From IMG/VR virus record IMGVR_UViG_3300022660_000065, positions 1 to 64,000 of that record: DNA of 64,000 nucleotides. One strand, given 5' to 3'. This DNA is from a virus (Duplodnaviria; Caudoviricetes). The notes under the pieces are model-generated. The model was not told the origin of the DNA. It made no database searches and worked only from the letters and a program-made list of their open reading frames with translations. Position numbers and translations under genes: made by a program. Positions 3,493 through 37,396 of the stretch are shown here, piece by piece; the first letter of the stretch is position 1, and the number at the start of each line of letters is the position of its first letter.

Positions 3493-4002
3493 TTATTTTA
3501 AAAATCTTTTATTATCTTCAATATCGTCAGCCCTGACAAACTCTCCATTAGCATGTCTCCAAATTCGTTGGTTAGAGGAACCTCTAAATCTTAATTTTTT
3601 GCCCGCAAGGTGCTCTTTGAACTGTCCGTCAACAACATAGTCACAATTCTGAAGAATCATTTTCTGAGTTTCATCCAATTTACCATCAATCTTAAACCCC
3701 GTCCAAAGCCAAATCGTCTTTTCAGGAAATTTTACCTTAACCTCTTCCAATAGTTCAACAAGGGCTTGGCCCTGAATTAACGGTTCGCCACCCAACACAC
3801 TTAAACCATCACAATGTTCATCCTCCAAATATGAAAAAAGTTCTGATTTTGCATCATCATCAAAAATCTCCCCCGAGTTTTTATCCCACAATTCAGGATT
3901 AAAACATCCAGGGCAATGGAAATCGCAACCCGTAAAGAAAATAGAACATCTAATTCCACATCCGTTGCTTATATCATACCTCTTAATTTTAGAATAATTC
4001 AT
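3493..4002 (-). CDS. nrdG: anaerobic RNR activating radical-SAM enzyme
   Basis: GCDFHCPGCFN (CxxxCxxC), LGGEP, FRGSSNQR; directly upstream of nrdD. Confidence 0.95.
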   Translation of the reverse strand: MNYSKIKRYDISNGCGIRCSIFFTGCDFHCPGCFNPELWDKNSGEIFDDDAKSELFSYLEDEHCDGLSVLGGEPLIQGQALVELLEEVKVKFPEKTIWLWTGFKIDGKLDETQKMILQNCDYVVDGQFKEHLAGKKLRFRGSSNQRIWRHANGEFVRADDIEDNKRFLK

Positions 4003-4096
4003 ATCTCTTCTCCTTTTTGATTATAGGGTAAGTATAATTAGTTTATTAAATACAAAAATTACATTTCCACGAGGGGTGAAGCAATTTTGCAAAATA

Positions 4097-4151
4097 ATTG
4101 ATTATCAAGCAATTATAATTAGCATTTTTGTTTAACCGCTTGATAATCAAT
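4097..4151. repeat. perfect 14-bp inverted repeat, 27-nt spacer
   Basis: ATTGATTATCAAGC (4097-4110) and GCTTGATAATCAAT (4138-4151). Confidence 0.85.
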
Positions 4152-4171
4152 AGTGAAAATATTTTTAATTT

Positions 4172-5257
4172 TTATGCAATTTTTTTGTATCTACATTTCT
4201 CGTTAATCTTATCGAGAACCAAATTCTTAGTAAGTTTCAAGGACTTAGATTTTTTCATAGGAGTTTCATACATAAAATCATTCATAATTGTCTCCATAAT
4301 ATTTCTTAAGCCTCTCGCACCGACTTTGAGTTCATAGGCATATTTTGCAATTTCAGTGAGTGCATCTTTAGTGAAAGTAAGTTCGCAATCATCCATTTTA
4401 AAAAGTTTTTGATATTGGGAAACTAATGAATTTTTTGGTTCCGTTAAAATTAGTTTCAAATCATCAATTGTTAATTCATTAACATGAGTTATGACAGGAA
4501 AACGTCCAATGAATTCAGGAATAAGACCAAAAGTCTTAAAGTCCTGCGGTGTGGAGTATTTTATAAGTTCATCGCTCTTAACAACCGTTTTCTCATTAAT
4601 ATTGAATCCTATTTTACTGCCTCCAAGCCTGCTTTTAATAATATCTTCAATCCCCGGAAATGCACCTGAAGCAATAAAAAGAATGTTAGTTGTATCAATA
4701 TACAACAATTCCTGTTCAGGATGCTTTCTTCCTCCTTGTGGATGAACACCTACCATAGAACCTTCCACCATTTTAAGAAGTCCCTGTTCAACTCCTTCTC
4801 CTGACACATCTCGTGTTACCGAGACTCCCGCACCCTTTTTTGCAATTTTATCAATTTCATCAATGAACACAATTCCAATTTCGGCTGCAGGAATGTTGTA
4901 GTCACACTCACGAAGAAGACCTACCAATAACGATTCTATGTCGTCACCAACATATCCGCTTTCTGTTATTGAAGTTGCATTACCTATATAACAAGGAACT
5001 CCAAGCATTTTGGCAATTGTTTTAACAATAAGTGTCTTTCCACAGCCTGTATTTCCTGCAATAAGAATATTTGACTTTTCAAGTTCATCGTAACCATTGT
5101 TGTTGTTAAATATTTTCTTATAATGGTTATAAATTGCTACCGACAAAGCCTTTTTAGCATCATCCTGTCCAATAATATATTTGTCAAGATATTCTTTTAT
5201 CTCATGAGGCTTGTATTTCAAGCCAGTCTTTTCTAACTCTTTTCTAAAATCCGCCAT
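4172..5257 (-). CDS. clpX: ClpX-like AAA+ unfoldase without N-terminal zinc-binding domain
   Basis: IIGQDDAKK, Walker A GNTGCGKT, GYVG pore loop, DEIDKI, GGRKHP, IGF loop, GARGLR; ATG at 5257 preferred over ORF-track 5278 because the promoter lies at 5276-5307. Confidence 0.93.
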   Translation of the reverse strand: MADFRKELEKTGLKYKPHEIKEYLDKYIIGQDDAKKALSVAIYNHYKKIFNNNNGYDELEKSNILIAGNTGCGKTLIVKTIAKMLGVPCYIGNATSITESGYVGDDIESLLVGLLRECDYNIPAAEIGIVFIDEIDKIAKKGAGVSVTRDVSGEGVEQGLLKMVEGSMVGVHPQGGRKHPEQELLYIDTTNILFIASGAFPGIEDIIKSRLGGSKIGFNINEKTVVKSDELIKYSTPQDFKTFGLIPEFIGRFPVITHVNELTIDDLKLILTEPKNSLVSQYQKLFKMDDCELTFTKDALTEIAKYAYELKVGARGLRNIMETIMNDFMYETPMKKSKSLKLTKNLVLDKINEKCRYKKIA

Positions 5258-5275
5258 ATTATTTCTATTCTTAAG

Positions 5276-5307
5276 CAAAGATACTATTTTTTTAGAAACT
5301 TCCCAAA
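5276..5307 (-). promoter_or_regulatory. Bacteroidota housekeeping-sigma promoter
   Basis: TTTG-N20-TATCTTTG on minus strand upstream of clpX. Confidence 0.7.
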
Positions 5308-7038
5308 TTTTTGGGCACCAATTGTTTTTTTTACAGTTTTTTTTGTTTCTCCCTGAAGTTCTTGAATCATTTTTTTATAACCGTTTTGCGGAGCAAGATT
5401 AATTGCCATTTGTTTTCCAACAGGAATATCCAAAAGACGTTTAATTACTTCAAGTTTCTTTTTAATTTCAGCATTATGTTTATTACCCCTTTCTATCTTA
5501 AACTTATCTTCATTTATAAATTGAAGGGTTTGTTTTGCTCGTGTAATTGCTACATATTCGAGATTTTTTTCAGAAATAATCTCCCATTCCTTATCTGCGT
5601 ATACACTTGGCATAAGCGATTTTGAAAGGATGAAAACATTATCAGCCTCAAGACCTTTTGATTTATGAATTGTCGATAAGCACACTGCGTCATTTTTTCC
5701 CTCATTGAAGATTGTTTTAATCTTTTCAATCAACTCGTTACAAGTATTAATCCCCTCAGAAAGAATTTCTAATGAAGATATTGTATCGTAAAAATCCATA
5801 GCGGGGGCACTAAAACAAGCTTCATCTTCTGATAATGAATTCCGTTCCACCATAGTTTCAACTATCTTAAAATAGTTTTTATATAGATTACGGAATAATC
5901 CTTTATCGAATAATGATTTATTAAGTGGATAATCGTCACCTTCACCTTTGAATTGTTTTATAGTCTGAATTAGACTTTCTCCAATATCCTTCCCTCTAAT
6001 ATACGACTTTTTGTTAATTCTAAGATATTCGGTATATAGTTTTACGAGGGGATAAGTATTCCTACAAAGTACCATATCCCCCGGCTTTGGTGCATAAGGG
6101 TCCACATCATATTTAATACTCCCCATCATTGCATTTTCAGCAGCCTGAATCTCCGGTACAAATTTCTGCGCCATTTTAATCACCAATTCAGGGCAACGAT
6201 ACGATATCGGGAGTTTGAACTCTTTAGTATTAGGCATTTTTAGAAAATTATTAAACGCTTCAATATCAGCGCCCGCCCACGCATTGATACACTGTGAACT
6301 ATCCCCCACAGCACAAAACTTAGCTCCACGCTTGAAACATTTCTGAAATAATTTCTGTTGTACCGGTGAAGAGTCCTGAGCTTCATCCACGAAAATCCAA
6401 TCATAACTATGTTTTCTTGACCTTAAATCGAGTTCATAAGGTAACCATACCATATCAGTATAATCAACGGTTTCAAGGGCGGTTTTACCCCATTTTAAGA
6501 CGTTTTCAACAATCTTACACTCATTATCCACAAGAACAACATCATATTTATCTGCAATAGTTTCAATCTCTTTTTCTGATTGACATAAGTTGAAACGGGC
6601 ATAGTCGATTAGTTTCTCAATATTTTTAAGAAACGTACCGTAAAGAATTGGTGAAACCCCACCTTCATATCCAAGTTCGTAAAGGTTATTTCTGAAATAA
6701 GTTGTGTACTTATAATCATCCAATTCGGGTTTTCTTTTAAGGGATTCAGAAACAATTGAATAACCTAATGAATGATAAGTCATTATATTGACATTCGCAA
6801 CATCACCCACTTTTTCTTTGAGCGTATTCACAATATCCTTATTGAATGCAATGAAAAGTACTTTGCTGTTTTGTGGAATAAGCCTCAGTGCATTGACAAT
6901 CGTGGTTGATTTTCCCGAGCCTGCAACAGCATTAATGACCATATTAGAGGAACCATGTAATATATTCTCAAATATCAATTCCTGATATGGACTTGGTGTG
7001 AATTCTAAATTGTTATAATAAATCTTATGTTCTGACAT
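5284..7038 (-). CDS. UvrD/Rep-like superfamily 1 helicase
   Basis: AVAGSGKST, FVDEAQD, AVGDSSQCI, SYRCP, STIHKSKGLEAD, YVAITRAK; ATG at 7038 likely. Confidence 0.92.
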   Translation of the reverse strand: MSEHKIYYNNLEFTPSPYQELIFENILHGSSNMVINAVAGSGKSTTIVNALRLIPQNSKVLFIAFNKDIVNTLKEKVGDVANVNIMTYHSLGYSIVSESLKRKPELDDYKYTTYFRNNLYELGYEGGVSPILYGTFLKNIEKLIDYARFNLCQSEKEIETIADKYDVVLVDNECKIVENVLKWGKTALETVDYTDMVWLPYELDLRSRKHSYDWIFVDEAQDSSPVQQKLFQKCFKRGAKFCAVGDSSQCINAWAGADIEAFNNFLKMPNTKEFKLPISYRCPELVIKMAQKFVPEIQAAENAMMGSIKYDVDPYAPKPGDMVLCRNTYPLVKLYTEYLRINKKSYIRGKDIGESLIQTIKQFKGEGDDYPLNKSLFDKGLFRNLYKNYFKIVETMVERNSLSEDEACFSAPAMDFYDTISSLEILSEGINTCNELIEKIKTIFNEGKNDAVCLSTIHKSKGLEADNVFILSKSLMPSVYADKEWEIISEKNLEYVAITRAKQTLQFINEDKFKIERGNKHNAEIKKKLEVIKRLLDIPVGKQMAINLAPQNGYKKMIQELQGETKKTVKKTIGAQKFGKFLKK

Positions 7039-7059
7039 TTCTGTATAAGTTTTGTGGTG

Positions 7060-7090
7060 CAAAGATAGTGATTAAAAACGATTTTACAAA
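7060..7090 (-). promoter_or_regulatory. Bacteroidota housekeeping-sigma promoter
   Basis: TTTG-N19-TATCTTTG on minus strand upstream of the helicase. Confidence 0.7.
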
Positions 7091-7099
7091 CTATTTATA
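7089..7099 (+). promoter_or_regulatory. candidate late promoter AACTATTTATA (one of about 19 copies)
   Basis: Same motif recurs 10-60 nt upstream of structural and leader-bearing genes on both strands. Confidence 0.6.
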
Positions 7100-7124
7100 G
7101 TATATAACATTTGGAGGAGATAAT

Positions 7125-7496
7125 ATGGATAAGAAATATATTGACTTTATTTGCTCTTTACATGGGTACATGATTCGTGTAAAAGAAATACATTGGAGTA
7201 CAGATAATAATGCGGAACATCTTCTTTGTGATGAAGTTGAAGAAGCAATTCATGACCTTGAAGACCGTTTCGCTGAATGTGCAATGGGTATTACTGGTAA
7301 AAAAGTTAAAGTAGGTGACTTAAAACCTATGCTTCCCCATGCAACTAAGTTAAAAGACATGCTTAAGGAACTTGCTGACGAAACCATGGATATGAAAGAT
7401 AATTTCGATGGCTATCAGTATAGTGGTTTAGAGAATATCTGCGATGACATTATGGAAATGTGTGGAAAATACATGTATAGAACAACACAACGATAG
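7125..7496 (+). CDS. ferritin/Dps-like four-helix protein
   Basis: KEIHW...EHLLCDE...DRFAE pattern resembling Dps ferroxidase helices. Confidence 0.6.
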   Translation: MDKKYIDFICSLHGYMIRVKEIHWSTDNNAEHLLCDEVEEAIHDLEDRFAECAMGITGKKVKVGDLKPMLPHATKLKDMLKELADETMDMKDNFDGYQYSGLENICDDIMEMCGKYMYRTTQR

Positions 7497-8140
7497 TAAT
7501 GAAACTGAATTATAATGACATACGATATATAATTAATGAGACTACAAAGTGAATTATTGAAGGTGCTGAGTGGTCTCAAGGTCTTGCATGGGGTGGTGGT
7601 ACACGTGGCCGTAAAAACACAGCAAATCTCCACATCAACCAAGATAAAACTGACAAGGGCAATATCAGTGGTGATATGAATGCAGATACTCGTATGTTTG
7701 GTTCCAAAAATGATATATTATATGGTGATGGAACCATGAACAAAAATTATATGCCGTTAGCTCAAAGAGCAGGTCATTATAATTCTTTGAATAATTTTTA
7801 TCAACAAGTATTAGACTATTGCAACGGTAAAATACAATTATCCGATATTGATTTCCAAAATGCCCCATCTATACAAAGCAAAAATATACAAGAACTTATA
7901 AATAACGGGGTATCAACTGAAGACCTTAAAACTGAAATTTTAAGCCGCATATCACGTGATAATATGGATTCCACTGTAAAACAAATGACGTATAATAGAG
8001 TTCAACAAACAGCGAATCCTGAAAAAGTAAAACGTTATAATACAGGGATTGTTCCCGGCACTAACGTTAAGTTTATTGCATTATACACGATTAATGATTT
8101 TAACTTTAACGATGCAATCAAGCATGGTAAATTAAGGCCA

Positions 8141-8148
8141 AATAATAA
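8141..8148. repeat. 8-bp target site duplication, left (AATAATAA)
   Basis: Identical to 10426-10433. Confidence 0.92.
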
Positions 8149-8176
8149 GGGAACGATATACATGTTTACACTAAAA
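8149..8176 (+). repeat. left terminal inverted repeat
   Basis: GGGAACGATATACATGTTTACACTAAAA. Confidence 0.92.
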
Positions 8177-8192
8177 ATAGCGTAAATAACTG

Positions 8193-8222
8193 AAGTCCAG
8201 TCGAAAAAGACTGGACTTTTTG
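8193..8222 (+). terminator. intrinsic terminator inside IS left end
   Basis: AAGTCCAGTC-gaaaaa-GACTGGACTT followed by a T run; would block read-through into the transposase. Confidence 0.7.
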
Positions 8223-8279
8223 GTAACAACGGGTTAGATTATTGGTATATACTAATAACGAACTTAACCCGTTTGATAT

Positions 8280-9227
8280 ATGAAACTTCAGTTAGCACAT
8301 TTCAACTCACTCATTTCCCTCGTTACTTACTTCAACAACGACAAGCGTTGTCGTGATTTCATTACCGAACAGCGTTGGGGCGGCAATGTGACTTGCCCGT
8401 TCTGTGGATGCACCCATACTTACGTATGCTCCAACGGTGACAATCAGTTCAAGTGTGCAGATTGCAAGAAGCGTTTCTCTTGCCTCGTGGGTACAATCTT
8501 CCACAATACCAAATTGCCACTTCAGAAGTGGTTTATGGCAATGTACCTTATCTCATCACATAAGAAGGGTATCTCATCACACCAGTTGTCTCGTGACCTT
8601 GATGTGACACAGAAAACAGCGTGGTTTATTCTTCATAAGGTACGTACACTCTTTGCTCAGTACGATACTCCTGCTCTTGAGGGTGAGATTGAGTTAGATG
8701 AAATGTACCTTGGCGGTAGAGAGGCTAACAAACATCAGTCAAAGAAGACTGAAGGTACACAGGGACGTTCCACTAAAACGAAGACTCCAATCTTCGGTAT
8801 GGTTCAGCGTGACGGACTCGTTCACGCTCTTAAAGTGTCTGATACCAAGACATCAACCTTGCTCCCTATCATCAAGCAGTTCTGTGCTGAGAACTCTCAT
8901 TTCTTTACAGATGAGTTGAATTCGTACTCTTGCCTTGACAGAGCAGGAATCTCACATAGTGTTATTGAGCACGGCAAGAAGGAGTTCTCAAAGGATGGTA
9001 TCACTACCAATAGCATTGAGGGATTTTGGGGACACTTCAAGCGTATGGTTTTCGGTACATATCATTTCGTTAGCAAGGATTACCTTCAGCGTTATCTTGA
9101 TGAAGCGGTTTACCGCTATAATACACGAAAAGCGGACGAATCCGCCCGCTTTGCTGATATGTTTTGTAAGTCAATAGGTATCGTATCCTATGACGATGTG
9201 AAGATTACATCTATTGCTGTTGCATAG
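8280..9227 (+). CDS. IS1595-family DDE transposase
   Basis: Zinc ribbon CPFCG...CADC, HTH, ELDEMYLGG, FTDELNSY, TNSIEGFWGHFKR. Confidence 0.95.
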   Translation: MKLQLAHFNSLISLVTYFNNDKRCRDFITEQRWGGNVTCPFCGCTHTYVCSNGDNQFKCADCKKRFSCLVGTIFHNTKLPLQKWFMAMYLISSHKKGISSHQLSRDLDVTQKTAWFILHKVRTLFAQYDTPALEGEIELDEMYLGGREANKHQSKKTEGTQGRSTKTKTPIFGMVQRDGLVHALKVSDTKTSTLLPIIKQFCAENSHFFTDELNSYSCLDRAGISHSVIEHGKKEFSKDGITTNSIEGFWGHFKRMVFGTYHFVSKDYLQRYLDEAVYRYNTRKADESARFADMFCKSIGIVSYDDVKITSIAVA

Positions 9228-9963
9228 TTTGTTGATTCTTTTGCTGAATGGTTTGTAACCATTGATTACACAAATTTCGACCAATATTTAACACTTGCTG
9301 AACTGCGTTTCCCGTATTGTATTCAAACGTTTTATTGTACTGTGTTGACGAGGTAATATTAATTGTGCAAATACTATTACCGTTTGTTGTAAATGTGGCA
9401 TCACATGTAAATCCGTTACCATAGAACATATTCAATGTACATTCTATTTGTTTTCCTCTTGAATTATTAAGAATGGAATGTAATTGAGAAATTGCTTGTT
9501 GATTCACACGACTATTCGTTTTTAAGTCAACTCTATATTGTTGCCCCATACTCTCATTCAATACTCGTTTTACAGATTCTGTAATGACTTGTTTGAGTTC
9601 AGATTCTGAGATTCTAATCTTTTGTGGTCGCTTTGATTCGAATTGTACAGGACTACCATTACTTGCAGATGACACCCAATTGGAATTTGTATTCTTAGTT
9701 GTTATTTTCTTAGGAGCAACATTATCTGTAGTTATATTGACTCTCATTTGCGAGGTGTTATGAAGGTTTTTGTTAATCATATCTGAAACCATCTGAAAAA
9801 CTTCTTCCAAATCGCCATCTGTTATCACCCCACCGCCATTCTGTACGGTTCTAAGATGATTCTTCATATATGATGTAATCTGAGAAAATGAAGATGCTAT
9901 ATTAGCGTAAGCACCAGATAACATTTCTTCTTGCTCACTCCATTGTACCCTATTTCTTGCCAT
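9211..9963 (-). CDS. IS passenger protein with internal leader motif
   Basis: 250 aa; residues about 115-137 KIRISESELKQVITESVKRVLNE; GATATTTATA motif upstream (9997-10006). Confidence 0.8.
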   Translation of the reverse strand: MARNRVQWSEQEEMLSGAYANIASSFSQITSYMKNHLRTVQNGGGVITDGDLEEVFQMVSDMINKNLHNTSQMRVNITTDNVAPKKITTKNTNSNWVSSASNGSPVQFESKRPQKIRISESELKQVITESVKRVLNESMGQQYRVDLKTNSRVNQQAISQLHSILNNSRGKQIECTLNMFYGNGFTCDATFTTNGNSICTINITSSTQYNKTFEYNTGNAVQQVLNIGRNLCNQWLQTIQQKNQQTMQQQ

Positions 9964-10050
9964 ATCGTATTTGTTTTAAATTCACATTATTTCCTATATA
10001 AATATCTCGTAATTAGAAAAAAACATTAAATTCGCACAAATTCACACGCT

Positions 10051-10374
10051 ATGAAGTACGAAATATGCCTTAACGAATCAACTAACATAAGATTCCACGA
10101 AATTTGCAGACATTTACTAACAAATGATGCTTTAGAAATAACAAATATTGTTCTAACAAAGCATAGTAATTTTTGGGAAGCAACAGAATATATCCTTGAT
10201 TCAACATCAGTTAGTCGTATCACCAAAGTGCAAATTGTAACTTGCTTCTTGTATGCTGGTGGTAATGTGAAATTCAATGGGCAATTCTATAAGACATCAC
10301 AAGAGTATTCCTTTTGGAAATACTTGCTTGAGCACCAATTTATTTCAGAAGACGAGTACTATAGTTTAAAATAA
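10051..10374 (+). CDS. second IS passenger, hypothetical
   Basis: 107-aa ORF inside the TIRs, followed by a hairpin at 10375-10401. Confidence 0.65.
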   Translation: MKYEICLNESTNIRFHEICRHLLTNDALEITNIVLTKHSNFWEATEYILDSTSVSRITKVQIVTCFLYAGGNVKFNGQFYKTSQEYSFWKYLLEHQFISEDEYYSLK

Positions 10375-10397
10375 AAAACGCACTCAAAATGAATGCG

Positions 10398-10425
10398 TTT
10401 TAGTGTAAACAGGTATATCGTTCCC
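10398..10425 (-). repeat. right terminal inverted repeat
   Basis: Reverse complement GGGAACGATATACCTGTTTACACTAAAA, 27/28 identical to left TIR. Confidence 0.92.
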
Positions 10426-10433
10426 AATAATAA
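10426..10433. repeat. 8-bp target site duplication, right (AATAATAA)
   Basis: Identical to 8141-8148. Confidence 0.92.
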
Positions 10434-11513
10434 AGTTAAAGATAATACAGGATTAGAGGGTAAAAGAGGAAGTCATATTCCCGTTTCATATGATAATAAC
10501 AGTATCATTGCTGATGTTGAAAGCAACTTTTCATTAAAAGATGTAAGACCTCAGCACTACAAATCTCAATATAATTTAGGTGATAAAGAAGCATACACAT
10601 CCGTTCATCAATTTATTGATAAATCTGTAATGTATGCAGCCTCATCATTAAAAGATGAGAGTTTCATCCCTGATTATATTATCGCCCCACCATCATCTTC
10701 CAACTTCAATAGATATTATTGCATAAATCTAAGCCGTAAACTTGGGTGTGAGTTTGTTGATAATTTCTTTAAGAAAGGACTTTTCCGAGTTAAAGTTATG
10801 GGAGGTCAAGGTACTGAAATCATGAAGAAACATGGTTTTACTGATGAAAGCATTTTTAAATTTGAACAAAAGGTTAAAAATAGTGTTTTCCAGCAAATAT
10901 CATATGACATTCGTAAACCTATTGAACAATTTGTCACAAAATCTATATACACCAAAGCAATAGAAAATGCAATTTTAACTTACCCCCAATTAAAAAAGAA
11001 AACATATGAAGATGTTGTTGATATGATAATTGACGACATTCTCCATGTTTCGATTGATTATATTAAAGACAGGAGGATTGCACAAAATATTATCAATAAG
11101 GCCCTTGAAACTTATGATTATAAGGGAATGTTAGGTATTATTAAAAACCAACGTAATCGAAGAGATATACAAAAAGTTTGTATGACAGTTGCTAAACTGC
11201 TTGAATATTATTCTCAAACTCTAATTGATAGAGGTGGATTTAAGTTAAGGGATGTCCGTGGTGCTAAAATTACAGATTTTGAAAAACGTGAACGTGATTT
11301 CCTCGATGATTGTTATGTTGTTGCTGATAAAGAACTTTCCCAGAAAGGAGGATTGCTTTCAAGATATAAAAATAAAAATATCCTCATTTTTGATGAGGAT
11401 ATAAATAGCGGAGGTACTCTCCGTATGGCAATTAATGCACTTTCAGAACAGACAGGAGACCCGTCTAACAAAGGCGTTATGTGTCTTTGTAATGCTTATT
11501 CAAAAGCGGGATA

Positions 11514-12134
11514 TTAGGAAAATGCTCTCATAACAGTTTTTCCACTGTTAAACAAGCCTTCATATACATACCCTTCAACATATGAAGGGTATTTTTCATA
11601 TTCAAAATCTTCGTCATCAAATACAAAATCAATTTTTATTGTATAAACGTCCCCACATATGTTTCTCGTCTCTTCAATGATATTTTTAAGAATTAAATCA
11701 TTAACCCTATAATCAATTTCTTCATATCCATAATTTTCTACATCTATTGAAACTCTAACTTTCACTTTTTCCCACAAAATATCATCGGATTCTATGAAAG
11801 AACATAAATCTTTTCTAAAATCTATTTCATTATACCAATCAATAAACTTTTTTTCACTAAATTCTTCTTTAGTCATTTCAAGACCAATCGGGCTATCATA
11901 TATCGTTTTATATTCTAATTTAATAAGATAATAATCCTCGTAATTATTTTTCTCCATTTCAAGTAGGAAATTTTCTCTATCCACTATATTAAAACCACTA
12001 TCATTAATAAGTTTATTTGATAGGAGTTTCATGTCCTGTTGTGCTATATCCAAGTCAATATAAGGATATGTATTAACAACTAAACCATCAGTGTCATTTT
12101 CCCTTGTTACTGTAAGAATCCAAATTTTATCCAT
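11514..12134 (-). CDS. hypothetical protein
   Basis: 206-aa ATG ORF. Confidence 0.7.
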   Translation of the reverse strand: MDKIWILTVTRENDTDGLVVNTYPYIDLDIAQQDMKLLSNKLINDSGFNIVDRENFLLEMEKNNYEDYYLIKLEYKTIYDSPIGLEMTKEEFSEKKFIDWYNEIDFRKDLCSFIESDDILWEKVKVRVSIDVENYGYEEIDYRVNDLILKNIIEETRNICGDVYTIKIDFVFDDEDFEYEKYPSYVEGYVYEGLFNSGKTVMRAFS

Positions 12135-27867: not shown

Positions 27868-28596
27868 ATGTTGAAATCAAATCTTACTGAGATAACAAAA
27901 AATAAAGTTGGAACCGGTCTTCTTTTGGAAAACGATGGCTACATTTCAATGTCTGAAGGAGAGAATAAAAAACTATTCGAATCTGTTAAGAAGATAAATG
28001 AGGGACTTAATGACGGTGAGTTTTACTGCCCTTATCCTTTTGTCGTACATGCTGTGTTCCAAAAATTTGGTATTGAAAACGCTAACGGGCGTATATATCC
28101 GGAAGATGTACTTAAAAAGCAAGTGGCGATATATCAGCAAAAGATAAACGAGAAACGCGCTTATGGGGAAACAAATCATCCGGATTCAAGAACATCAGTA
28201 AATCTTGACCTTGTTTCAATGAATATCCTTGAACTTCATTGGGAAGGACAGACACTTGTCGGACAACTTGAAGTAATCACAACACCGGGTTTTAGAAAGT
28301 ATGGTATCGCAAGTTCAACAGGAGACCTTACAGCAAATTTACTTCTTCAGGGCCTTAAAATAGGCGTGTCTTCAAGAGGTGTTGGTTCTGTTGAACATAA
28401 ATTTGGAAAGTACATAGTGGGGGACGATTATGAAATCATTTGTTGGGATTATGTTAGTGACCCAAGCACCAGAAATGCATGGGTTGACATCGAAAAAGAA
28501 AAATTAACCCCATATCTTGAAAATACGGAAAATAAAAAACCAATTCTTTCAGAGAATACAAAATTGGATAAATTTAGTAAATGGTTGAATGATTAA
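27868..28596 (+). CDS. prohead protease (T4 gp21-like)
   Basis: NANGRIYP, GETNHP, GVSSRGVGS, WDYVSDPS. Confidence 0.9.
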   Translation: MLKSNLTEITKNKVGTGLLLENDGYISMSEGENKKLFESVKKINEGLNDGEFYCPYPFVVHAVFQKFGIENANGRIYPEDVLKKQVAIYQQKINEKRAYGETNHPDSRTSVNLDLVSMNILELHWEGQTLVGQLEVITTPGFRKYGIASSTGDLTANLLLQGLKIGVSSRGVGSVEHKFGKYIVGDDYEIICWDYVSDPSTRNAWVDIEKEKLTPYLENTENKKPILSENTKLDKFSKWLND

Positions 28597-30156: not shown

Positions 30157-31977
30157 ATGGCTAACGAATTTTTAAGAAGTGGTCAGTTCGAAAGCATTGA
30201 ACTGAACGAACAGAAGAAAGTTAGAGGAATGATTAACGAGCGTTGGGACAAGCTCGGACTTACTGCAGGTCTCGACGGATATATCAAAGATAATATCGCA
30301 GCCCTCTACGAGAATGAGGTTAAATACCTCCTTAATGAAGCAACTGCTTCTGACAACAGCGGCTCATTCGAGACTGTTGTATTCCCTATCATCCGCCGTG
30401 TATTCAGCAAGCTCCTTGCTAACGACCTCGTGTCAGTACAGGCAATGAACCTTCCTATCGGAAAACTTTTCTTCATCCTCCCTGTAACTTCAGAGCGTCA
30501 GTGGAGCGCAGAGGAAATGGCTGATGGTGTAACAGGTTCACACTACGGACTTATGGGTTATGAAAGAACTGACCGTAAGGATGGTTCACAGCACAACCGC
30601 TTCTATCTTCCTGATGAGGCTGTTAACGGTGTTGACAGAACTAACCCTGAGGTAACTCAGTACATGGAGAAGTCTCTTTATGACCTTTTCTACAACGATT
30701 TCCTTTATGATAACTCTAAGGGTAAAATCACTATCAAGGTTTCTGATAAGGTAACTCCTAAGAAATGGGATAAGGGTGTCCTCGCTGATGCTGCTGAAGA
30801 TTTCTCAGATGTTCCTGTATTCGGTCTTGACGGTACTGTACGTAACGTAATCCTTGAGGTAGGTGGTTTCGCATCTTACAACGCAGGTAAACTTACAGGT
30901 CCTGACGGAAACGAAATGGATACTGAGGCATTCCTCGCATCTCTTAAGGTTATCGCTCCTGCTATCGACGGTGGTGAGAACGCTTCTTCTTTCGCAGAAG
31001 GTGAGTCTCTTCAGTTCCGCGTTGTAACTCAGAAGTATGGTAAGGGCATCGTAGAGTATGGCAACCCTTGCTCTGCAGAAGGTAAGATTCTCCTTGAGGT
31101 TGACCTTTCTAAGCCAGTTATCAAGCAGCAGGCAACTGTTGACGGTTATGTAGGTGTTCCTGCAGCAGCTCTCGCAGGTAAGAAGTTCCAGGTTGCTTGG
31201 GCTCAGTACGATTCACTCGAACTTGAGACTGAGATTGGTGAGGTTTCTTTCAAACTCGATTCAGTAACTGTATCAGTTGAGGAACGCAAACTTCGTGCTA
31301 CTTGGTCTCCTGAACTCGCACAGGACGTTGCAGCATTCCATAACATCGACGCTGAGGCTGAGCTTACCGCTATCCTCTCAGAGCAGATTGCAGCAGAGAT
31401 TGACCGTGAGATTCTCCGTGACCTCCGTAAACTCGCTCCATGGCAGGCTCGTTTCGATGTAAACGGTTGGAGACGTATGGCAGGTTATTCAACTAACTAT
31501 ACTCAGAAAGACTGGAATCAGGAACTTATCACTAAGGTAAATCAGATTTCTGCTCAGATTCAGAAGTCAACTCTCCGTGGTGGTGCTAACTGGCTCGTAG
31601 TTTCTTCAGAGATTAATGCTCTCCTTAACAACCTTGAGTATTTCCACGTAACTGACGCTTCAGCTGAGTCTGATACTTATAACATGGGTATCGAGCGCGT
31701 TGGTTCACTTCAGGGACGTTATCAGGTATATGTTGACCCATATGCTCCATCTTATTCACTTATCATGGGACACAAGGGTAAGTCACTCCTTGACACAGGA
31801 TACATCTATGCACCATACGTGCCAATGCAGTTGACTCCAACAATGTATAATCCTTTCAACTTTGCACCTGTTAAGGGAATCATGACGAGGTACGCAAAGA
31901 AATGTGTTAACAACAAATTTTATGGAGGCATAAAGGTCGATGGCCTTGTAACATGGAACATTAACGAACTTCGCTAA
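30157..31977 (+). CDS. major capsid protein (T4 gp23-like)
   Basis: PIIRRVF...LVSVQAMNLPIG, SWSPE-like ATWSPELAQD, AEIDREI, GYIYAPYVP, GIMTRY; strongly biased codons. Confidence 0.95.
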   Translation: MANEFLRSGQFESIELNEQKKVRGMINERWDKLGLTAGLDGYIKDNIAALYENEVKYLLNEATASDNSGSFETVVFPIIRRVFSKLLANDLVSVQAMNLPIGKLFFILPVTSERQWSAEEMADGVTGSHYGLMGYERTDRKDGSQHNRFYLPDEAVNGVDRTNPEVTQYMEKSLYDLFYNDFLYDNSKGKITIKVSDKVTPKKWDKGVLADAAEDFSDVPVFGLDGTVRNVILEVGGFASYNAGKLTGPDGNEMDTEAFLASLKVIAPAIDGGENASSFAEGESLQFRVVTQKYGKGIVEYGNPCSAEGKILLEVDLSKPVIKQQATVDGYVGVPAAALAGKKFQVAWAQYDSLELETEIGEVSFKLDSVTVSVEERKLRATWSPELAQDVAAFHNIDAEAELTAILSEQIAAEIDREILRDLRKLAPWQARFDVNGWRRMAGYSTNYTQKDWNQELITKVNQISAQIQKSTLRGGANWLVVSSEINALLNNLEYFHVTDASAESDTYNMGIERVGSLQGRYQVYVDPYAPSYSLIMGHKGKSLLDTGYIYAPYVPMQLTPTMYNPFNFAPVKGIMTRYAKKCVNNKFYGGIKVDGLVTWNINELR

Positions 31978-32007
31978 TCTAACTTGCTGAAAAGCAACTA
32001 CTTATAT

Positions 32008-32040
32008 AAAGGCTGTGAAATTAATCACAGCCTTTATTTT
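32008..32040 (+). terminator. intrinsic terminator after capsid gene
   Basis: AAAGGCTGTGA-aattaa-TCACAGCCTTT plus T run. Confidence 0.8.
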
Positions 32041-32174
32041 TGTATATTTTAATCCATTTAATTTTGTTTTTAATTGACGTTTTAGTGAACATTTCGTGTT
32101 ATTTACCGATTTTTTGTTGTTTTAGTGAATAATTATTTGTATATTTACAAAAATAATAAATAAAAAATGTTTTT

Positions 32175-34079
32175 ATGAGAGAATTTACCAATGAAGAAAT
32201 AACTTCAATAATTGAAGATTATTCTAACAAAATTAGCACTGTTAAAATTTCTAAAAAGTTTAGAACATCACCACAAAAAATAAAAAACATATTAATGGAT
32301 AACGGAATTGACATTCATGACCCATCTAAAACCGTAGGATTCACCCGTAAACCAAATAACTATTGGGAGAATAGGGATAATATATCCGAGGCTATGAAAA
32401 AATGTAAAACAAGAAGAGAGTTTTCACAAAAATATAGTCGTGCTTATTCTATTGCAAGAGAGAAAGGATGGTATGAAGAAATGGCAAATCTTTATTTTAA
32501 TAAAGAGGATTCATTTAACAATTATACTGCCAAAATTCATATGGTTTATGCTTATGAATTTAAAGAATTAAACCATGTTTATGTGGGGAGAACATTGGAT
32601 TTGAAGAGGAGACACCGTGAACATAGTAAAGATGAGAAAGATGGCGTTTTTAAATTTGCAAAAGATAATGGATGTAATATACCAAATGTTAGAATATTAG
32701 AAAAAGATTTAACAGCAGAAGAAAGTCAAATACAAGAAAATTTTTGGATTGAAGATTATTTAAGGCATAAATGGTTAATAATTAATAAATCATCAACAGG
32801 TATTAATAAAAGTTCATTGGGCGGTTCATTTAGAAAATGGAATTACGAAAAATGTAAGATAGCAGCCTCCAAATGCACAAGTAAAGAAGATTTTAAAAAT
32901 AAATTTGTTGGCGCATATAATATTTCACGAAAATATGGGTGGATTTATGATTTTTTCGATTTTAACTTAAAAAAAGAAAACGGTTGTTTTAATACATTTG
33001 AACAATGTATTAATGAAATCAAAAAATATAAAACTCTTGGGGGAATCAGAAAAAATTATCCATTTTTATATCATAAAATATGTAAAAACAAATGGAATGA
33101 TAAAGTTAGAGATATTTTGGGATATACCCCTAAACAGGTTTCAAAAAAAGTATATAAATTAAAAGATAAAGCAATAAAGGAAGAATATAAATTGTTGGAT
33201 GTAAATACAAAAAATCTAAGTAATAAAGAACTCATTTTTTATTATATGATATATGCCCCATCAGTCAATATTTACCCTAAAATTTTGAATATAAGCAAAT
33301 ATGGGGAAAAAACTATTTTTGTGATAGAAGATAAAAAAATCGCATTCGTTGTTATTGGTGTTAATAACTATAGAAACAAAAAAATAAATATTGAAAATAC
33401 ATACGGATATTCAGTACATGTTATATATGATTGTGAAATAAACCCCATGGATTTCAAATTAGAAAATAAAATTGATTCCATTTTAAACATTAGGCGAGAA
33501 CTTGGATGTATTACTTTAAATGCAAGAGATTGTAAAGTTGGAGAAATTTGTTCTCAATGCGCCAACGAATTTTTAAATACTAATCATATACAAGGTGAAT
33601 GTAGTTCCACAATTTATTTGGGTGCAACATATGATAACATTTTAGTTGGCGTCATGACTTTTAAGAATGGTTCTTTAACTAATAAAGGATGGGAGTTAAA
33701 TAGATTTGCAACAGATTTCCATTTTATAGTGAGAGGCTTGGGTAGTAAGATGTTTAAATATTTCATAAACCACTATAATGTTGATAGTGTAATATCATTT
33801 GCTGATAGAAGGTGGACATCTTCATTAAATAATGTTTACACCAAAATGGGGTTTGAATTCTGTCATATTACACCACCTTCATATAAATATCTATCCGTAG
33901 ATACATCTGACTCCAAATTGTATAATAAATTTGGGTTTAGGAAACAAACGTTACTTAGAAAACATCCCGGCTTTCTAACCCCTGAAATGACAGAAACGGA
34001 AATGGCTAAGAAACTTGGTTACGATAAAATATGGGATTGCGGACTCATAAAGTATATATGGAAAAAACCTGAGGAATAA
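32175..34079 (+). CDS. GIY-YIG-like endonuclease fused to a Hef/Mom-like GNAT-fold C-terminal domain
   Basis: VYAYEF...VYVGRT...RRHREH...E; C-terminal ELNRFA...GSKMFKYF...SFADRRW...YTKMGF...IWDCG; very AT-rich. Confidence 0.7.
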   Translation: MREFTNEEITSIIEDYSNKISTVKISKKFRTSPQKIKNILMDNGIDIHDPSKTVGFTRKPNNYWENRDNISEAMKKCKTRREFSQKYSRAYSIAREKGWYEEMANLYFNKEDSFNNYTAKIHMVYAYEFKELNHVYVGRTLDLKRRHREHSKDEKDGVFKFAKDNGCNIPNVRILEKDLTAEESQIQENFWIEDYLRHKWLIINKSSTGINKSSLGGSFRKWNYEKCKIAASKCTSKEDFKNKFVGAYNISRKYGWIYDFFDFNLKKENGCFNTFEQCINEIKKYKTLGGIRKNYPFLYHKICKNKWNDKVRDILGYTPKQVSKKVYKLKDKAIKEEYKLLDVNTKNLSNKELIFYYMIYAPSVNIYPKILNISKYGEKTIFVIEDKKIAFVVIGVNNYRNKKINIENTYGYSVHVIYDCEINPMDFKLENKIDSILNIRRELGCITLNARDCKVGEICSQCANEFLNTNHIQGECSSTIYLGATYDNILVGVMTFKNGSLTNKGWELNRFATDFHFIVRGLGSKMFKYFINHYNVDSVISFADRRWTSSLNNVYTKMGFEFCHITPPSYKYLSVDTSDSKLYNKFGFRKQTLLRKHPGFLTPEMTETEMAKKLGYDKIWDCGLIKYIWKKPEE

Positions 34080-34091
34080 ACCTCAGGTTTT
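34064..34091. terminator. intrinsic terminator
   Basis: AAAACCTGAGG-aataaa-CCTCAGGTTTT. Confidence 0.75.
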
Positions 34092-34106
34092 CATTTTTTT
34101 TACATT

Positions 34107-34216
34107 ATACACGAAATCGTGAACAGAGTGAGCGTTTTGCTGATATGTTCTGTAAGTCCATCTGCATTGTATCCTATGCTGATGTAAAGGTAGTTAAACA
34201 GAGCATTGCTGCTTAA
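34107..34216 (+). pseudogene. 3' remnant of an IS1595-family transposase
   Basis: Translates TRNREQSERFADMFCKSICIVSYADVKVVKQSIAA*, colinear with TRKADESARFADMFCKSIGIVSYDDVKITSIAVA* encoded at 9121-9227. Confidence 0.9.
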
Positions 34217-34495
34217 TTACCATCGTTTGGAATCAATTTGCTTCATAAAATTTGAAAGGAATTGTCTGTATTTTAGGGACACATCACCAAGATTATCAAG
34301 TTGCTCTTGAGGGATAACATCCAAATAGTCGTTTATTAAATAACGTGTAATTCTATTAATTTCAGTTAATTCATTCTGTACACCAGTATTCCCCCATGGC
34401 ATATACTCTTCACTTTCTTTCAATACTTTCTTTACTGATTCAGAAATAACTTTTTTCAAGTCAGATTCTGTTAATCTTATTGTGTTTTTCTTCAT
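34217..34495 (-). CDS. leader-tagged small protein
   Basis: MKKNTIRLTESDLKKVISESVKKVLKE; stop abuts the transposase remnant stop. Confidence 0.8.
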   Translation of the reverse strand: MKKNTIRLTESDLKKVISESVKKVLKESEEYMPWGNTGVQNELTEINRITRYLINDYLDVIPQEQLDNLGDVSLKYRQFLSNFMKQIDSKRW

Positions 34496-34516
34496 ATTTC
34501 ACTATTTTCATATTTT

Positions 34517-35023
34517 TTATTGATGTCTTTCATTAAAATCTTGTTCGTCAGGAGTAAGATGCCTTTTCTTATAAGTATCCAAATCCCAATATCTATAATT
34601 ATCTAATGCATAATCTAATTTTTTCTCAATATCATCTGCAACTTCATCATGTGACCTACCCCCAAATGTTGAATTAAATTTGTCTTTCTCATGACCTTTC
34701 AAAGAAACCAACTGTTTCTTTTTTCTTTGAACATAAGTTTGCACTTCAGAAAAAAGATTTTTTATTTTTTGCGCAAGAATTGGACCTTGCGTGTTTTCAG
34801 GTTGTTCATCATCTTTATACCAATGTTCATATGCTTCACCTTTCAATGCCTGTTGCATTTTATTACATGCTTCTTCAAAATCGTACATGGCACCATCAAG
34901 CATATCAACTCTGTTATCAGATTTCTTTACGGCATCTTCTGCAGTTCCCCAAGAGATTTCGTTTAAAATCCTTTTTGTTGATTCGACCAATATGTAATTA
35001 AATTCTTTCTCAGCCAGTTTCAT
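34517..35023 (-). CDS. leader-tagged protein
   Basis: MKLAEKEFNYILVESTKRILNE; late motif 35046-35056. Confidence 0.8.
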   Translation of the reverse strand: MKLAEKEFNYILVESTKRILNEISWGTAEDAVKKSDNRVDMLDGAMYDFEEACNKMQQALKGEAYEHWYKDDEQPENTQGPILAQKIKNLFSEVQTYVQRKKKQLVSLKGHEKDKFNSTFGGRSHDEVADDIEKKLDYALDNYRYWDLDTYKKRHLTPDEQDFNERHQ

Positions 35024-35115
35024 AATTAAAACCCAATTATCTCCCTATAAATAGTTTAATGAAACTAAATGTGTTTTTCTTCTATATTGGATATTTATAG
35101 TAAATGGTTTATTGC

Positions 35116-36570
35116 ATGAAAATTACTGAAAATCAACTCTATGAAATGTTCTCAAAGAGTGTTAACAAGATTTTGATGGAAGGGCCTTCACAACAGAATG
35201 GCCCGGATGTCGACGGAACATTTAATCAGGAGTATGTTGATAAGAATATAAAGAAACGTGGGCTTGTTGACCCGAGTCAAAATGGTAAAGCCAAGATTGA
35301 TGGAAAATATGCAGCGGTAAAAGGAGGGAAAACGGCTTTAGGCGCTGCTGGTATGAGGGTTGGCACAGTTCTTGGTGCTGCGGCAATGGGTGCAATTGCG
35401 GGAGTTGGTGGTGCAACACTTGCTCTTGGAAACATTCTTAACATCGCAGGCCTTGGTATTCTTGTGGGTAACTATGTTTCTAACATAAATGCACTGAATA
35501 AGGTTTCAAAACTTGAATTCCCCAAGAACCCACAAAGCGCAATGAAATATGCAAGATATGCTGCTGCCGAGAGGGTTAATGCTCAACAGATTTGTCTTAA
35601 CATTCAGCAGAATCTCAAAAATGCAATGAATGCGTGGAATCTTGTTTATACAGGAGAAACTTATGATTGGCAGACGCTTCTTAATACCATTAACAACCAA
35701 GGAGGACAGACAAAAGCACGTTTTAAGGACCGTGGTCAAACACAACAAATTGATGTTGATTTTGATAAAAATCTCACTGACAAAAATGCGGGACAGAACG
35801 AAAGCATTTATCATGGCGATTTGTTAGAAGCCACAGATTACGATAAAACAATAAAAAGCGTTGCTGAATTCAAGACCGATTTTCAGCAGGATAAAGCGGG
35901 GGGCGAACAGGTTCTTGTTGGACTTGGTGAAGCATATGTTAAATCATATGGAGTGTGGATGCAGTGGACACGTTATATTAACGTTCTTGTTCATAAATTT
36001 CAGAAATATGGAGTTACTTGGGAACGTGTAATTCATTCAAACAATGAGTTTGGTGTTAAAAACACATTGATTACATTTGCCAATGAATTGTTTGGTACTA
36101 AGATACCACTTCAGGGGCTTGATGGTAAGGAGGAATATCAGGGTAAATCTCAAACGAAAGAAATCATACTTCGCCTTGTTGCCAACAATTGGGGAACCGG
36201 TGCGAAATATGGACGTTACAAAGGAACATCATATACATTACTTCAGCAAGAAAAAACAAACAATTTCTTCGCACTTGAACCACTTGACTACACAACAATG
36301 CAGAGTAACGGAAGTTGGGTTGGGGGACGTTTGTATTCAAACCCACTTGGAAACGGTATGGTGGAGGTTATTAGAGTCAACAATGGACAAAATGCCCAAA
36401 ACACTAATTTGGGACAATGCCCTGATTTTGATAATTTAAGCAAGGGACAGGGAATCACCTTCAATTATGCACCAAACATGGTTTCAAATACTACACAGGA
36501 CCCTAATGGTAAAAACGTATATATATTGAAACCTAACGCCGCATTTAGTATGATTGTATTTGATGATTAA
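35116..36570 (+). CDS. leader-tagged protein with Gly/Ala-rich hydrophobic segment
   Basis: MKITENQLYEMFSKSVNKILME; ALGAAGMRVGTVLGAAAMGAIAGVGGATLALGNILNIAGLGILVG; late motif 35090-35099. Confidence 0.75.
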   Translation: MKITENQLYEMFSKSVNKILMEGPSQQNGPDVDGTFNQEYVDKNIKKRGLVDPSQNGKAKIDGKYAAVKGGKTALGAAGMRVGTVLGAAAMGAIAGVGGATLALGNILNIAGLGILVGNYVSNINALNKVSKLEFPKNPQSAMKYARYAAAERVNAQQICLNIQQNLKNAMNAWNLVYTGETYDWQTLLNTINNQGGQTKARFKDRGQTQQIDVDFDKNLTDKNAGQNESIYHGDLLEATDYDKTIKSVAEFKTDFQQDKAGGEQVLVGLGEAYVKSYGVWMQWTRYINVLVHKFQKYGVTWERVIHSNNEFGVKNTLITFANELFGTKIPLQGLDGKEEYQGKSQTKEIILRLVANNWGTGAKYGRYKGTSYTLLQQEKTNNFFALEPLDYTTMQSNGSWVGGRLYSNPLGNGMVEVIRVNNGQNAQNTNLGQCPDFDNLSKGQGITFNYAPNMVSNTTQDPNGKNVYILKPNAAFSMIVFDD

Positions 36571-36586
36571 AAAACAATAATTACGT

Positions 36587-37396
36587 ATGATAGAAAAATG
36601 GTATAGGGGACATGAAGGTTCAAGGCATGCACTTGACAATTTTGGGATAATATGGTTATCAGCCGACCCTGAATATGCTCAGTTATACGCCGATGAATAT
36701 CCTGATGGAATTGTGTCAACAGTGTGGGTTGATATGGATAAACTTAATTATTTCGATAATTATTATGATAATAATTTTGATGTGTATGACCCCGACATGA
36801 GATTGGTTAGGGAATATATGGAAGAGGGTGGAAATTGTTATACCTTTCCCGTGGGAGATGGAATAGATGTTCTTGCATTAGTTTCAACAGAACCGGTAAT
36901 AAAAGTAGAAAGAAAAATAGTTGAAAATATGAAACTTAATTACAATGATATTAGATATATCATGCACGAAGCAACAAAAAGAATTCTTTCAGAACGTTAT
37001 AATCACATGAAAGAGGAAGATTTCAGTATCGATATATTTGAACTTGAAATTGACCCATCATTTGAAGAGGAACTTGATGACTATTCACGAATGGAAGGTG
37101 GTATGAATGAAGTTCATGTAATATGTACATTTAATTGTTTTGAAGGCCAAGAGGGTTCTTATGAACAGGAACCAATATCCCCATATTGCAATCTTGAAGA
37201 TGTACAGCCGGGAAATAATGAAGGCCTTATGCAAAACATGTCTCCTGAATTGTTCGCAGCCGTAATTAACTCAGCTCTTGACTATGTTTGGAAGCATCAG
37301 CAAGAGTTTGAAGAGGATTTCATTACTGAGTGCGAACCGGACCCTATGGATTTCTTCGATGAGGATGAATATCGTTATAAAAAATTAGGATATTAA
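36587..37396 (+). CDS. ART-fold-like domain fused to a leader-tagged acidic domain
   Basis: WYRG...IWLSADPEYAQLYA; in-frame ATG at 36929 begins MKLNYNDIRYIMHEATKRILSE. Confidence 0.6.
   Translation: MIEKWYRGHEGSRHALDNFGIIWLSADPEYAQLYADEYPDGIVSTVWVDMDKLNYFDNYYDNNFDVYDPDMRLVREYMEEGGNCYTFPVGDGIDVLALVSTEPVIKVERKIVENMKLNYNDIRYIMHEATKRILSERYNHMKEEDFSIDIFELEIDPSFEEELDDYSRMEGGMNEVHVICTFNCFEGQEGSYEQEPISPYCNLEDVQPGNNEGLMQNMSPELFAAVINSALDYVWKHQQEFEEDFITECEPDPMDFFDEDEYRYKKLGY

Follow-up and report, generated by a model that had tools for sequence, protein, structure and literature searches.

A probable decayed IS1595-family passenger cassette next to a homing-endonuclease-like gene in a T4-like jumbo phage

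The locus and its genes

The locus consists of a GIY-YIG homing-endonuclease-like gene, a hairpin with a T-run at its stop codon and the remnant of a transposase, which face two short genes, p92 and p168, on the opposite strand (Table 1). The window, meaning the whole 64-kb stretch of DNA analysed here, is the first part of an 88,186-bp IMG/VR virus contig with a CheckV completeness of ~25%. Its capsid protein is 74% identical to the counterpart in a complete 354,809-bp phage with direct terminal repeats and has hundreds of relatives, on contigs as long as 412 kb. An identical contig has gene calls that describe a T4-type head module (Gp23, Peptidase_S77, Portal_T4 and gp13), in which a 242-aa product (27868-28596) with PF03420 on record matches the PHROG head maturation protease (1.6e-39), as expected of a prohead protease of the gp21/S77 family. 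The window is part of the genome of a T4-like jumbo phage of ~350 kb, recovered from ruminant or gut metagenomic DNA, and Bacteroidales/Prevotella are suggested as its host group. No Pfam or PHROGs family was found for p92, p168, p488, p269, the 250-aa passenger described below or the ORF at 10051-10374.

Both p92 and p168 begin with a leader, a motif of ~27 residues ending in (I/V)LxE. Residues 1-27 of p92 end in VLKE and residues 1-22 of p168 in ILNE; as a sequence pattern, each is an N-terminal propeptide ending in L/I-x-E. The leader is frequent in these phages, with six strict motif matches in the 88-kb contig and occurrences in 16 of 80 capsid-gene neighbourhoods. Twelve of the 17 leader genes tested, including IS copies in bacterial chromosomes, are preceded by a TATTTAT-type motif at a distance of 19-41 nt; p92 has none upstream. 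Since the spacer that separates p92 from p168 is too short for a promoter motif, p92 is probably read through from p168; the spacer is also too short for a right IS end.

Table 1. Features of the locus and of the intact reference element (window coordinates)
Feature	Coordinates	Strand	Remarks
Intact reference IS	8149..10425	+	2277 bp; 28-nt TIRs (27/28); 8-bp duplication AATAATAA at 8141-8148 and 10426-10433
Passenger terminator-like hairpin and U-run	9129..9152	-	Inside transposase codons ~283-291 of the intact IS
GIY-YIG homing-endonuclease-like gene	32175..34079	+	Neighbour; not the cause of the truncation
Hairpin and T-run at endonuclease stop	34064..34104		Hairpin 34064-34091 holds the stop codon; left junction of the relic
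Transposase relic	34106..34216	+	Last ~37 codons and TAA, IS1595 family; non-coding now; in the p92 3' untranslated region
p92	34217..34495	-	92 aa, leader-tagged, by its relatives a former IS passenger; purifying selection; relatives keep the transposase tail
Spacer, p168 stop to p92 start	34496..34516		21 nt; 21-22 nt junction also in L155 and L253
p168	34517..35023	-	Resident leader-tagged gene outside the IS-derived unit; TATTTATA-type motif ~30 nt upstream (~35046-35054)

An intact IS1595-family element and its group

The window also contains an intact element with which the relic can be compared. Its ORF at 8280-9227 encodes an IS1595-family transposase with a DDE domain (PF12762, 3e-44) and a zinc ribbon (PF12760, 8e-10), and this transposase, the TIRs and the 8-bp duplication place the whole element in the IS1595 family. 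Within it lie a convergent, leader-bearing passenger of 250 aa (9211-9963) and a 107-aa ORF (10051-10374). The element interrupts a gene whose halves are found at 7676-8148 and 10434-11517; once the IS and a single duplication copy are taken out, the flanks join in frame to give 518 codons, and G003 and G004, two complete phages related to this one, have both halves in one open frame (654 and 604 aa). Neither IS region had a blastn match in the INPHARED phage collection.

A profile search recovered 15 close copies in jumbo-phage contigs, 1.5-3.1 kb long and all with passenger ORFs, whose TIRs start with GGGAAC or GGCAAT and whose duplications are of 8 bp and AT-rich; the TIR of the group begins GGGAACGATATAC. 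About 28 further copies occur in the chromosomes of Bacteroidales metagenome-assembled genomes (MAGs). The group is common in ruminant Bacteroidales and Prevotella MAGs, where the duplications are perfect and the flanks bacterial (superoxide dismutase, sodium:alanine symporter, beta-galactosidase, HsdM). No phage capsid protein match was obtained in five IS-bearing MAGs; a search for the leader in four MAGs, three of which belong to the capsid-negative five, located it inside the IS only, and a complete Prevotella chromosome gave no leader match. A convergent ORF abuts the transposase stop in 63 of 119 distinct full-length copies and bears a leader in 31 of these 63, which makes the tail-to-tail layout that the earlier note had likened to the intact IS a standard one in the group.

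Two of the fetched loci, L165 and L166, carry transposases 91-92% identical to that of the intact copy, on contigs assigned by binning to 'Candidatus Scatovivens' and to a Bacteroidales MAG from water buffalo; the assignment may point to the host group or to mis-binned phage contigs. The interval downstream of the capsid gene has been struck independently by the group in L156, where a solo left end at 7478 (minus strand) is followed by genes for 164-aa and 88-aa (leader) products, and in L004, where an intact 1729-bp IS (3868-5596) lies ~55 nt past the capsid gene stop.

The transposase relic

Frame 1 of 34100-34216 is open up to a TAA at 34214-34216, and tblastn within the window aligns it with residues 281-314 of the intact transposase at 62% identity over 34 aa (E 8.6e-11), which bears out the earlier note's reading of this 110-bp stretch as a colinear transposase C-terminus. 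At the nucleotide level, the two copies are 82% identical over 57 nt. Six of the eight changed codons in the conserved block are synonymous, in keeping with the many synonymous changes noted before, and the relic and the intact copy therefore appear to have diverged as working genes before one was truncated. Colinearity spans residues 278-315 of this PF12762-scoring transposase and of ~30 relatives, the nearest intact tails being those of L166 (77%) and L165 (71%). The relic lies beyond the Pfam domain, so that its IS1595 membership rests on tail homology.

Both borders of the relic are where the earlier note had put them. On one side, transposase homology starts at ~34106, a position placed by comparison with the empty site of L154, directly after the T-run of the endonuclease terminator; on the other, the base that follows the TAA of the relic begins the stop codon of p92. 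Beyond the relic and the intact copy, a contig search detected no transposase homology in the 88 kb, and the missing 5' part was found nowhere in the contig, including the stretch between the capsid gene and the endonuclease. The absence of a TIR was upheld by each search made: a 28-nt pattern allowing up to three mismatches matched at 8149 and 10425 only, with none near the relic; 30 TIR variants scanned over 31900-35400 gave no excess above shuffled controls; and the whole contig holds no other IS ends than those of the intact IS. With both ends missing, no 8-bp target site duplication can be defined at the relic.

The relic diverges from those of L158 and L161 by 0.15, close to the dS of p92 (0.16-0.18), and is neutral DNA in the p92 3' untranslated region. 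Although their p92 genes are nearly identical (dS 0.02), the L158 and L161 relics themselves (L158:1546-1617 and L161:407-478) show 17 differences over 74 positions, confined to the 5' half; these differences may reflect separate junction events or patchy conversion.

Transposase-less cassettes and the retained tail

Complete elements without a transposase exist among the relatives. The one at L254:3865-4541 (and in L255) is 677 bp long and has both IS ends, in the order right end with a subterminal hairpin, ATATTTAT motif, gene, last 36 transposase codons, left-end hairpin and left TIR. Its ends match both ends of the intact IS of the window, and it is flanked by ttattttt and tatttttt. L097 contributes another complete cassette, of ~680 bp (6922-7603). 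If a mobile insertion cassette is taken to have both ends and no transposase, these elements belong to that class and the unit in the window does not. Other derivatives are less complete. L160, L158/L159 and L012 have the left end only, whole or in part, and five of six further tail-only relics (L014, L019, L072, L097 and L164) abut a leader-tagged gene. In L012, a tail-only relic abuts a 405-aa gene whose N-terminus resembles the passengers of L088 (337 aa) and L091 (235 aa).

What is retained is not arbitrary. A strong hairpin with a U-run on the passenger strand, inside transposase codons ~282-291, is present in 37 of the 63 copies with a convergent ORF versus 5 of the 56 without one (odds ratio 14.5; Fisher p 8e-9, a value that overstates independence because the IS copies are phylogenetically related). 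Relics and cassettes alike start at codons 277-284, a short way before this hairpin. The usual retention of the tail would seem to follow from the position of the passenger terminator inside the coding region of the transposase: we read the retained tail as the 3' untranslated region and putative terminator of the passenger, so that deletions sparing it would leave a working gene. In the window, the corresponding stretch (~34118-34145) no longer folds (z -1.2 vs -4.2 for the intact copy, against shuffles), and the hairpin is still intact in the relic that L253 has at this locus. The endonuclease hairpin ~20 nt further on probably replaces the decayed one.

p92 as cargo and p168 as a resident

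The p92 gene is under purifying selection, with dN/dS of 0.18-0.49. Its full-length relatives, 39-88% identical, occur in four other contexts and once at the locus of the window itself, and every one found keeps the transposase tail abutting the gene stop. Those of L158, L159 and L161 (87-88% identical) adjoin a convergent PhoH gene, and in L158 and L159 the tail runs directly into the initial 11 nt of the left TIR. A third context, L160, has a relative 72% identical with the tail fused to 46 nt of the left end; the L254/L255 relatives (39%) lie beside SSB and NUDIX genes; and L253, which shares the locus of the window, encodes a 110-aa relative (42-47%). No intact IS with a p92-type body was present among the ~250 loci fetched, and the exact junction pattern, p92 3' end plus tail, had 0 matches in metagenome and viral contig collections, from which records close to the genome of the window may be missing. 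Judged by these sequences, p92 is IS cargo.

The PhoH gene at L158:1543-2672 has two outward-pointing left IS ends on its flanks, one belonging to the p92 cassette relic (1623, minus strand) and one to the start of a full IS (2584, plus strand). Its orientation relative to a neighbouring gene for 126-130 aa differs among the window, G001 and L158, which suggests IS-mediated inversion.

The status of p168 is different. Its homologues, with 51-83% identity, stand between the gp23 capsid and gp13/portal genes, on the strand opposite to these, in L154, L155, L156 and L253, and L154 and L156 have the homologue without p92 or a relic. By its synteny, p168 reads as a resident gene, not as demonstrated cargo. 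Its N-terminal 38 residues resemble those of some IS passengers (L165 and L169) at 39-42% identity, and it may have an older IS origin, of which nothing at the window locus gives a sign. The earlier proposal that leader-tagged genes arrive here as IS cargo is thus sustained for p92, by the tail kept in its relatives and by the complete cassette, and is not supported for p168; the finding that it had named as fatal to itself, conservation of these genes in relatives with no IS association, applies to p168 alone.

In L154, a 290-aa protein (6001-6873) combines the N-terminal domain of p269, whose gene lies at 36587-37396 of the window (51% identity over 134 aa), with a leader and then the body of p168. 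L253 encodes the p269-type N-domain on its own, in a 128-aa ORF immediately preceding p168. From the composition of the 290-aa protein, the leader seems also to serve as a joint for domain shuffling.

The endonuclease and the junctions

The neighbouring gene qualifies as a GIY-YIG homing endonuclease by its matches to PF01541 (8.7e-6), phrog_3339 (4e-56) and phrog_559 (3e-40). Its terminator, which has an A-run and a T-run on its two sides, probably also ends the p168-p92 transcript. L154 provides the empty site: 41 nt separate the p168 stop from the endonuclease gene, with neither p92 nor a relic between them. The last ~65 nt of the L154 endonuclease gene and its terminator are 90% identical to those of the window, the remaining protein only 26%, and the indel between the two sequences, ~396 nt, equals relic, p92 and spacer. 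The phage of the window, L155 and L253 have both junctions in common, i.e. codon ~278 adjoining the T-run and a gap of 21-22 nt from the p168 stop to the cargo start, and the truncated state therefore predates their split. L253 lacks the endonuclease body and retains its last ~45 nt, with one codon turned into a stop. As these comparisons read, the truncated state is independent of the endonuclease body. The earlier note had suggested that insertion of the endonuclease cut the transposase short and that a relative lacking it might hold a full IS; L154 has the terminator without the relic, and L253, the relative in question, has the relic at the identical junction.

In L155, the sequence upstream of the relic was considered as a left-TIR remnant and rejected, as it aligns better as a secondary deletion inside a relic of the window type. 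The C-terminal half of the window endonuclease has two paralogues in the contig beyond the window (77322-78383 and 80832-81701), and the L154 endonuclease gave a weak ROS_MUCR Pfam match, with no GIY-YIG match listed; modular endonucleases sharing a 3' module are suggested.

Origin of the unit

On balance, 34106-34495 is best explained as a decayed IS1595-family passenger cassette, composed of the transposase tail and p92, in the genome of a jumbo phage, and we regard this as likely. The parent IS group circulates in the chromosomes of Bacteroidales/Prevotella and in their jumbo phages, usually with a convergent gene whose product has the ~27-residue motif, and also occurs as transposase-less cassettes of ~680 bp that comprise left end, tail, passenger, promoter motif and right end. 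The cassette at the window locus would have come by transposition, most likely already without the transposase, since the deletion endpoint at codon ~278 matches that of complete cassettes. Both ends and the promoter region of the passenger itself would then have been lost, leaving p92 behind the resident p168 at its present distance, where the two are probably co-transcribed.

At some later time, recombination seems to have replaced the cargo body, acting between leader and transposase tail. Three bodies lie between the same junctions: p92 in the window, the 110-aa relative in L253 (~45%) and a 104-aa protein in L155 that shares with p92 the leader alone, at ~25 of 26 positions, in a pair of phages with p168 proteins just 78% identical. 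Tail types also differ among the three. The p92 body and distal tail of the window have 88-91% DNA identity to the PhoH-locus unit of L158 and L161, and this homology stops at the p92 start. Replacement of the body would fit recombination with leader and tail as arms, and the present content of the window may stem from a second event. The cassette itself could have entered by recombination, because no TIR, duplication or passenger promoter survives at the locus.

That last consideration shades into an account that is clearly less probable than the cassette and is the most substantial of its competitors, in which no IS-type insertion ever took place here and a resident leader gene behind p168 was converted by homologous recombination with an IS- or cassette-borne copy, crossovers in the leader and near the terminator importing the p92 body together with the transposase tail. 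The common outer junctions of the window phage, L155 and L253 around differing bodies and tail types agree with it, as do the near-identity of the window and L155 leaders against the lower identity of the p168 proteins and the halt of the L158/L161 homology at the p92 start. However, the codon ~278 endpoint also occurs in complete cassettes, for which one original cassette insertion is the simplest explanation, and the empty site of L154 has no convertible leader gene behind p168. An entirely fortuitous adjacency, with p92 a resident phage gene beside which an unrelated IS inserted and decayed, could draw on the frequency of leader-tagged genes in these phages but is hardly credible: the stop-to-stop junction of p92 and tail recurs in four other contexts and in the complete 677-bp element, the same layout is found in more than half of the distinct IS copies, and this recurrence already refutes it.

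Two further accounts concern the truncation and the persistence of the tail. A complete IS with both p92 and p168 may be imagined to have inserted and to have lost its transposase to a later endonuclease insertion, as the exact start of the relic at the endonuclease terminator and the likeness of the p168 N-terminus to the L165 and L169 passengers might suggest. It is very improbable and already largely refuted by the p168 homologues that L154 and L156 have at the same position without p92 or relic, by the endonuclease 3' end and terminator of L154 without a relic, by the L253 relic at the identical junction without an endonuclease body and by the lack of any 5' transposase piece between the capsid gene and the endonuclease. 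Only slightly better placed, and improbable too, is the notion that the relic has been retained for a function as p92 terminator, small peptide or regulatory RNA. Sister relics and intact copies do have a strong hairpin and U-run on the passenger strand, but in the window this region folds no better than shuffles, a separate terminator stands close by, divergence is about the synonymous rate, and the sole in-frame ATG, which would give a 23-residue peptide, is missing from L158. The decayed cassette thus remains the preferred reading.

Possible role of the leader and of the shuttling unit

In T4, gp21 cleaves after L/I-x-E, and internal proteins reach the head via short N-terminal targeting peptides (PMC9026906). 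The capsid protein of the window has, in its N-terminal region (30157-30360), LLNE followed by A around residue 61; this site resembles the end of the leader motif and is a likely maturation cleavage site. Since (I/V)LxE fits the gp21 rule and the capsid carries LLNE/A, it is plausible by analogy that the leader, as in T4, targets proteins to the capsid and is cleaved by the prohead protease. The presence of the leader in IS copies in bacterial chromosomes, where there is no phage head, counts against a capsid-loading role.

A bolder and rather doubtful extension would make the IS1595 subgroup and its cassettes a shuttle or exchange system for head-loaded phage proteins, with fixed arms, silent host copies and loading upon infection. 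Its arms would be the leader with the late-promoter motif at one end and the tail with its embedded terminator at the other, bodies being swapped between them; copies in Bacteroidales chromosomes would be expressed only on infection by a jumbo phage, whose capsids would then take up their products. Such a system might constitute a shared accessory pool for phages or a Trojan horse of the host or the IS.

Phage genomes seldom contain insertion sequences, and those that occur are usually regarded as damage. The present data point instead to one IS lineage that, with its transposase-less derivatives, repeatedly brings small phage-type genes to jumbo phages and to the chromosomes of their likely Bacteroidales hosts, the carrier decaying after delivery and the gene staying under selection. 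The window locus would represent the end state of this process, with the gene kept, both IS ends gone and 111 nt of transposase left, and the locus and its relatives display the site in its empty form, an intermediate of greater age and, within one and the same pair of junctions, three gene bodies. These observations give a concrete way in which large phages could replace their putative injected head proteins.

Comparison with known systems

Our literature search found no paper on passenger-carrying IS1595 elements or transposase-less cassettes in jumbo phages, and the paper on Jug phages (PMC12880540) makes no mention of transposase or IS. Passenger-carrying IS1595 elements and such cassettes are known kinds of element (PMC3129680). 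Passenger-carrying IS1595 elements have been termed 'transporter IS' (Siguier, Gagnevin and Chandler 2009, cited in PMC3129680). They and the subgroup studied here have in common DDE_Tnp_IS1595 with an N-terminal zinc ribbon, short TIRs, 8-bp duplications and internal passengers. Unlike them, the subgroup occurs in Bacteroidales and jumbo phages, its passengers are of phage type with the ~27-residue motif and a TATTTAT-type upstream motif, the passenger terminator is embedded in the transposase coding tail, and the window copy is a relic without ends.

The complete cassettes resemble mobile insertion cassettes (MICs), of which MIC231 of IS231 is an example (De Palmenaer et al. 2004, cited in PMC3129680). 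Like MICs, the elements at L254:3865-4541 and L097:6922-7603 have IS ends around a passenger and no transposase, and were presumably moved in trans by an intact IS; unlike MICs, they keep the last ~36 transposase codons. The window unit, in which neither end is present, is a dead derivative and not a MIC.

With the T4 internal proteins IPI, IPII, IPIII and Alt (PMC9026906), the p92 and p168 products would share the setting of a T4-type head module with an S77 protease, an N-terminal tag whose (I/V)LxE fits L/I-x-E, and mutually unrelated bodies behind the same tag. In contrast to T4, the tag is of 27 residues instead of 10-19, and it occurs within longer proteins and in bacterial chromosomal IS copies as well. 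Finally, the relic resembles the partial IS copies of ISfinder/ISsaga (PMC3129680), in which a short non-functional transposase fragment marks a past mobile-element event. It differs from such scars in that the retained part is non-random across many loci, being the terminator-bearing tail, and flanks a gene body that can be swapped.
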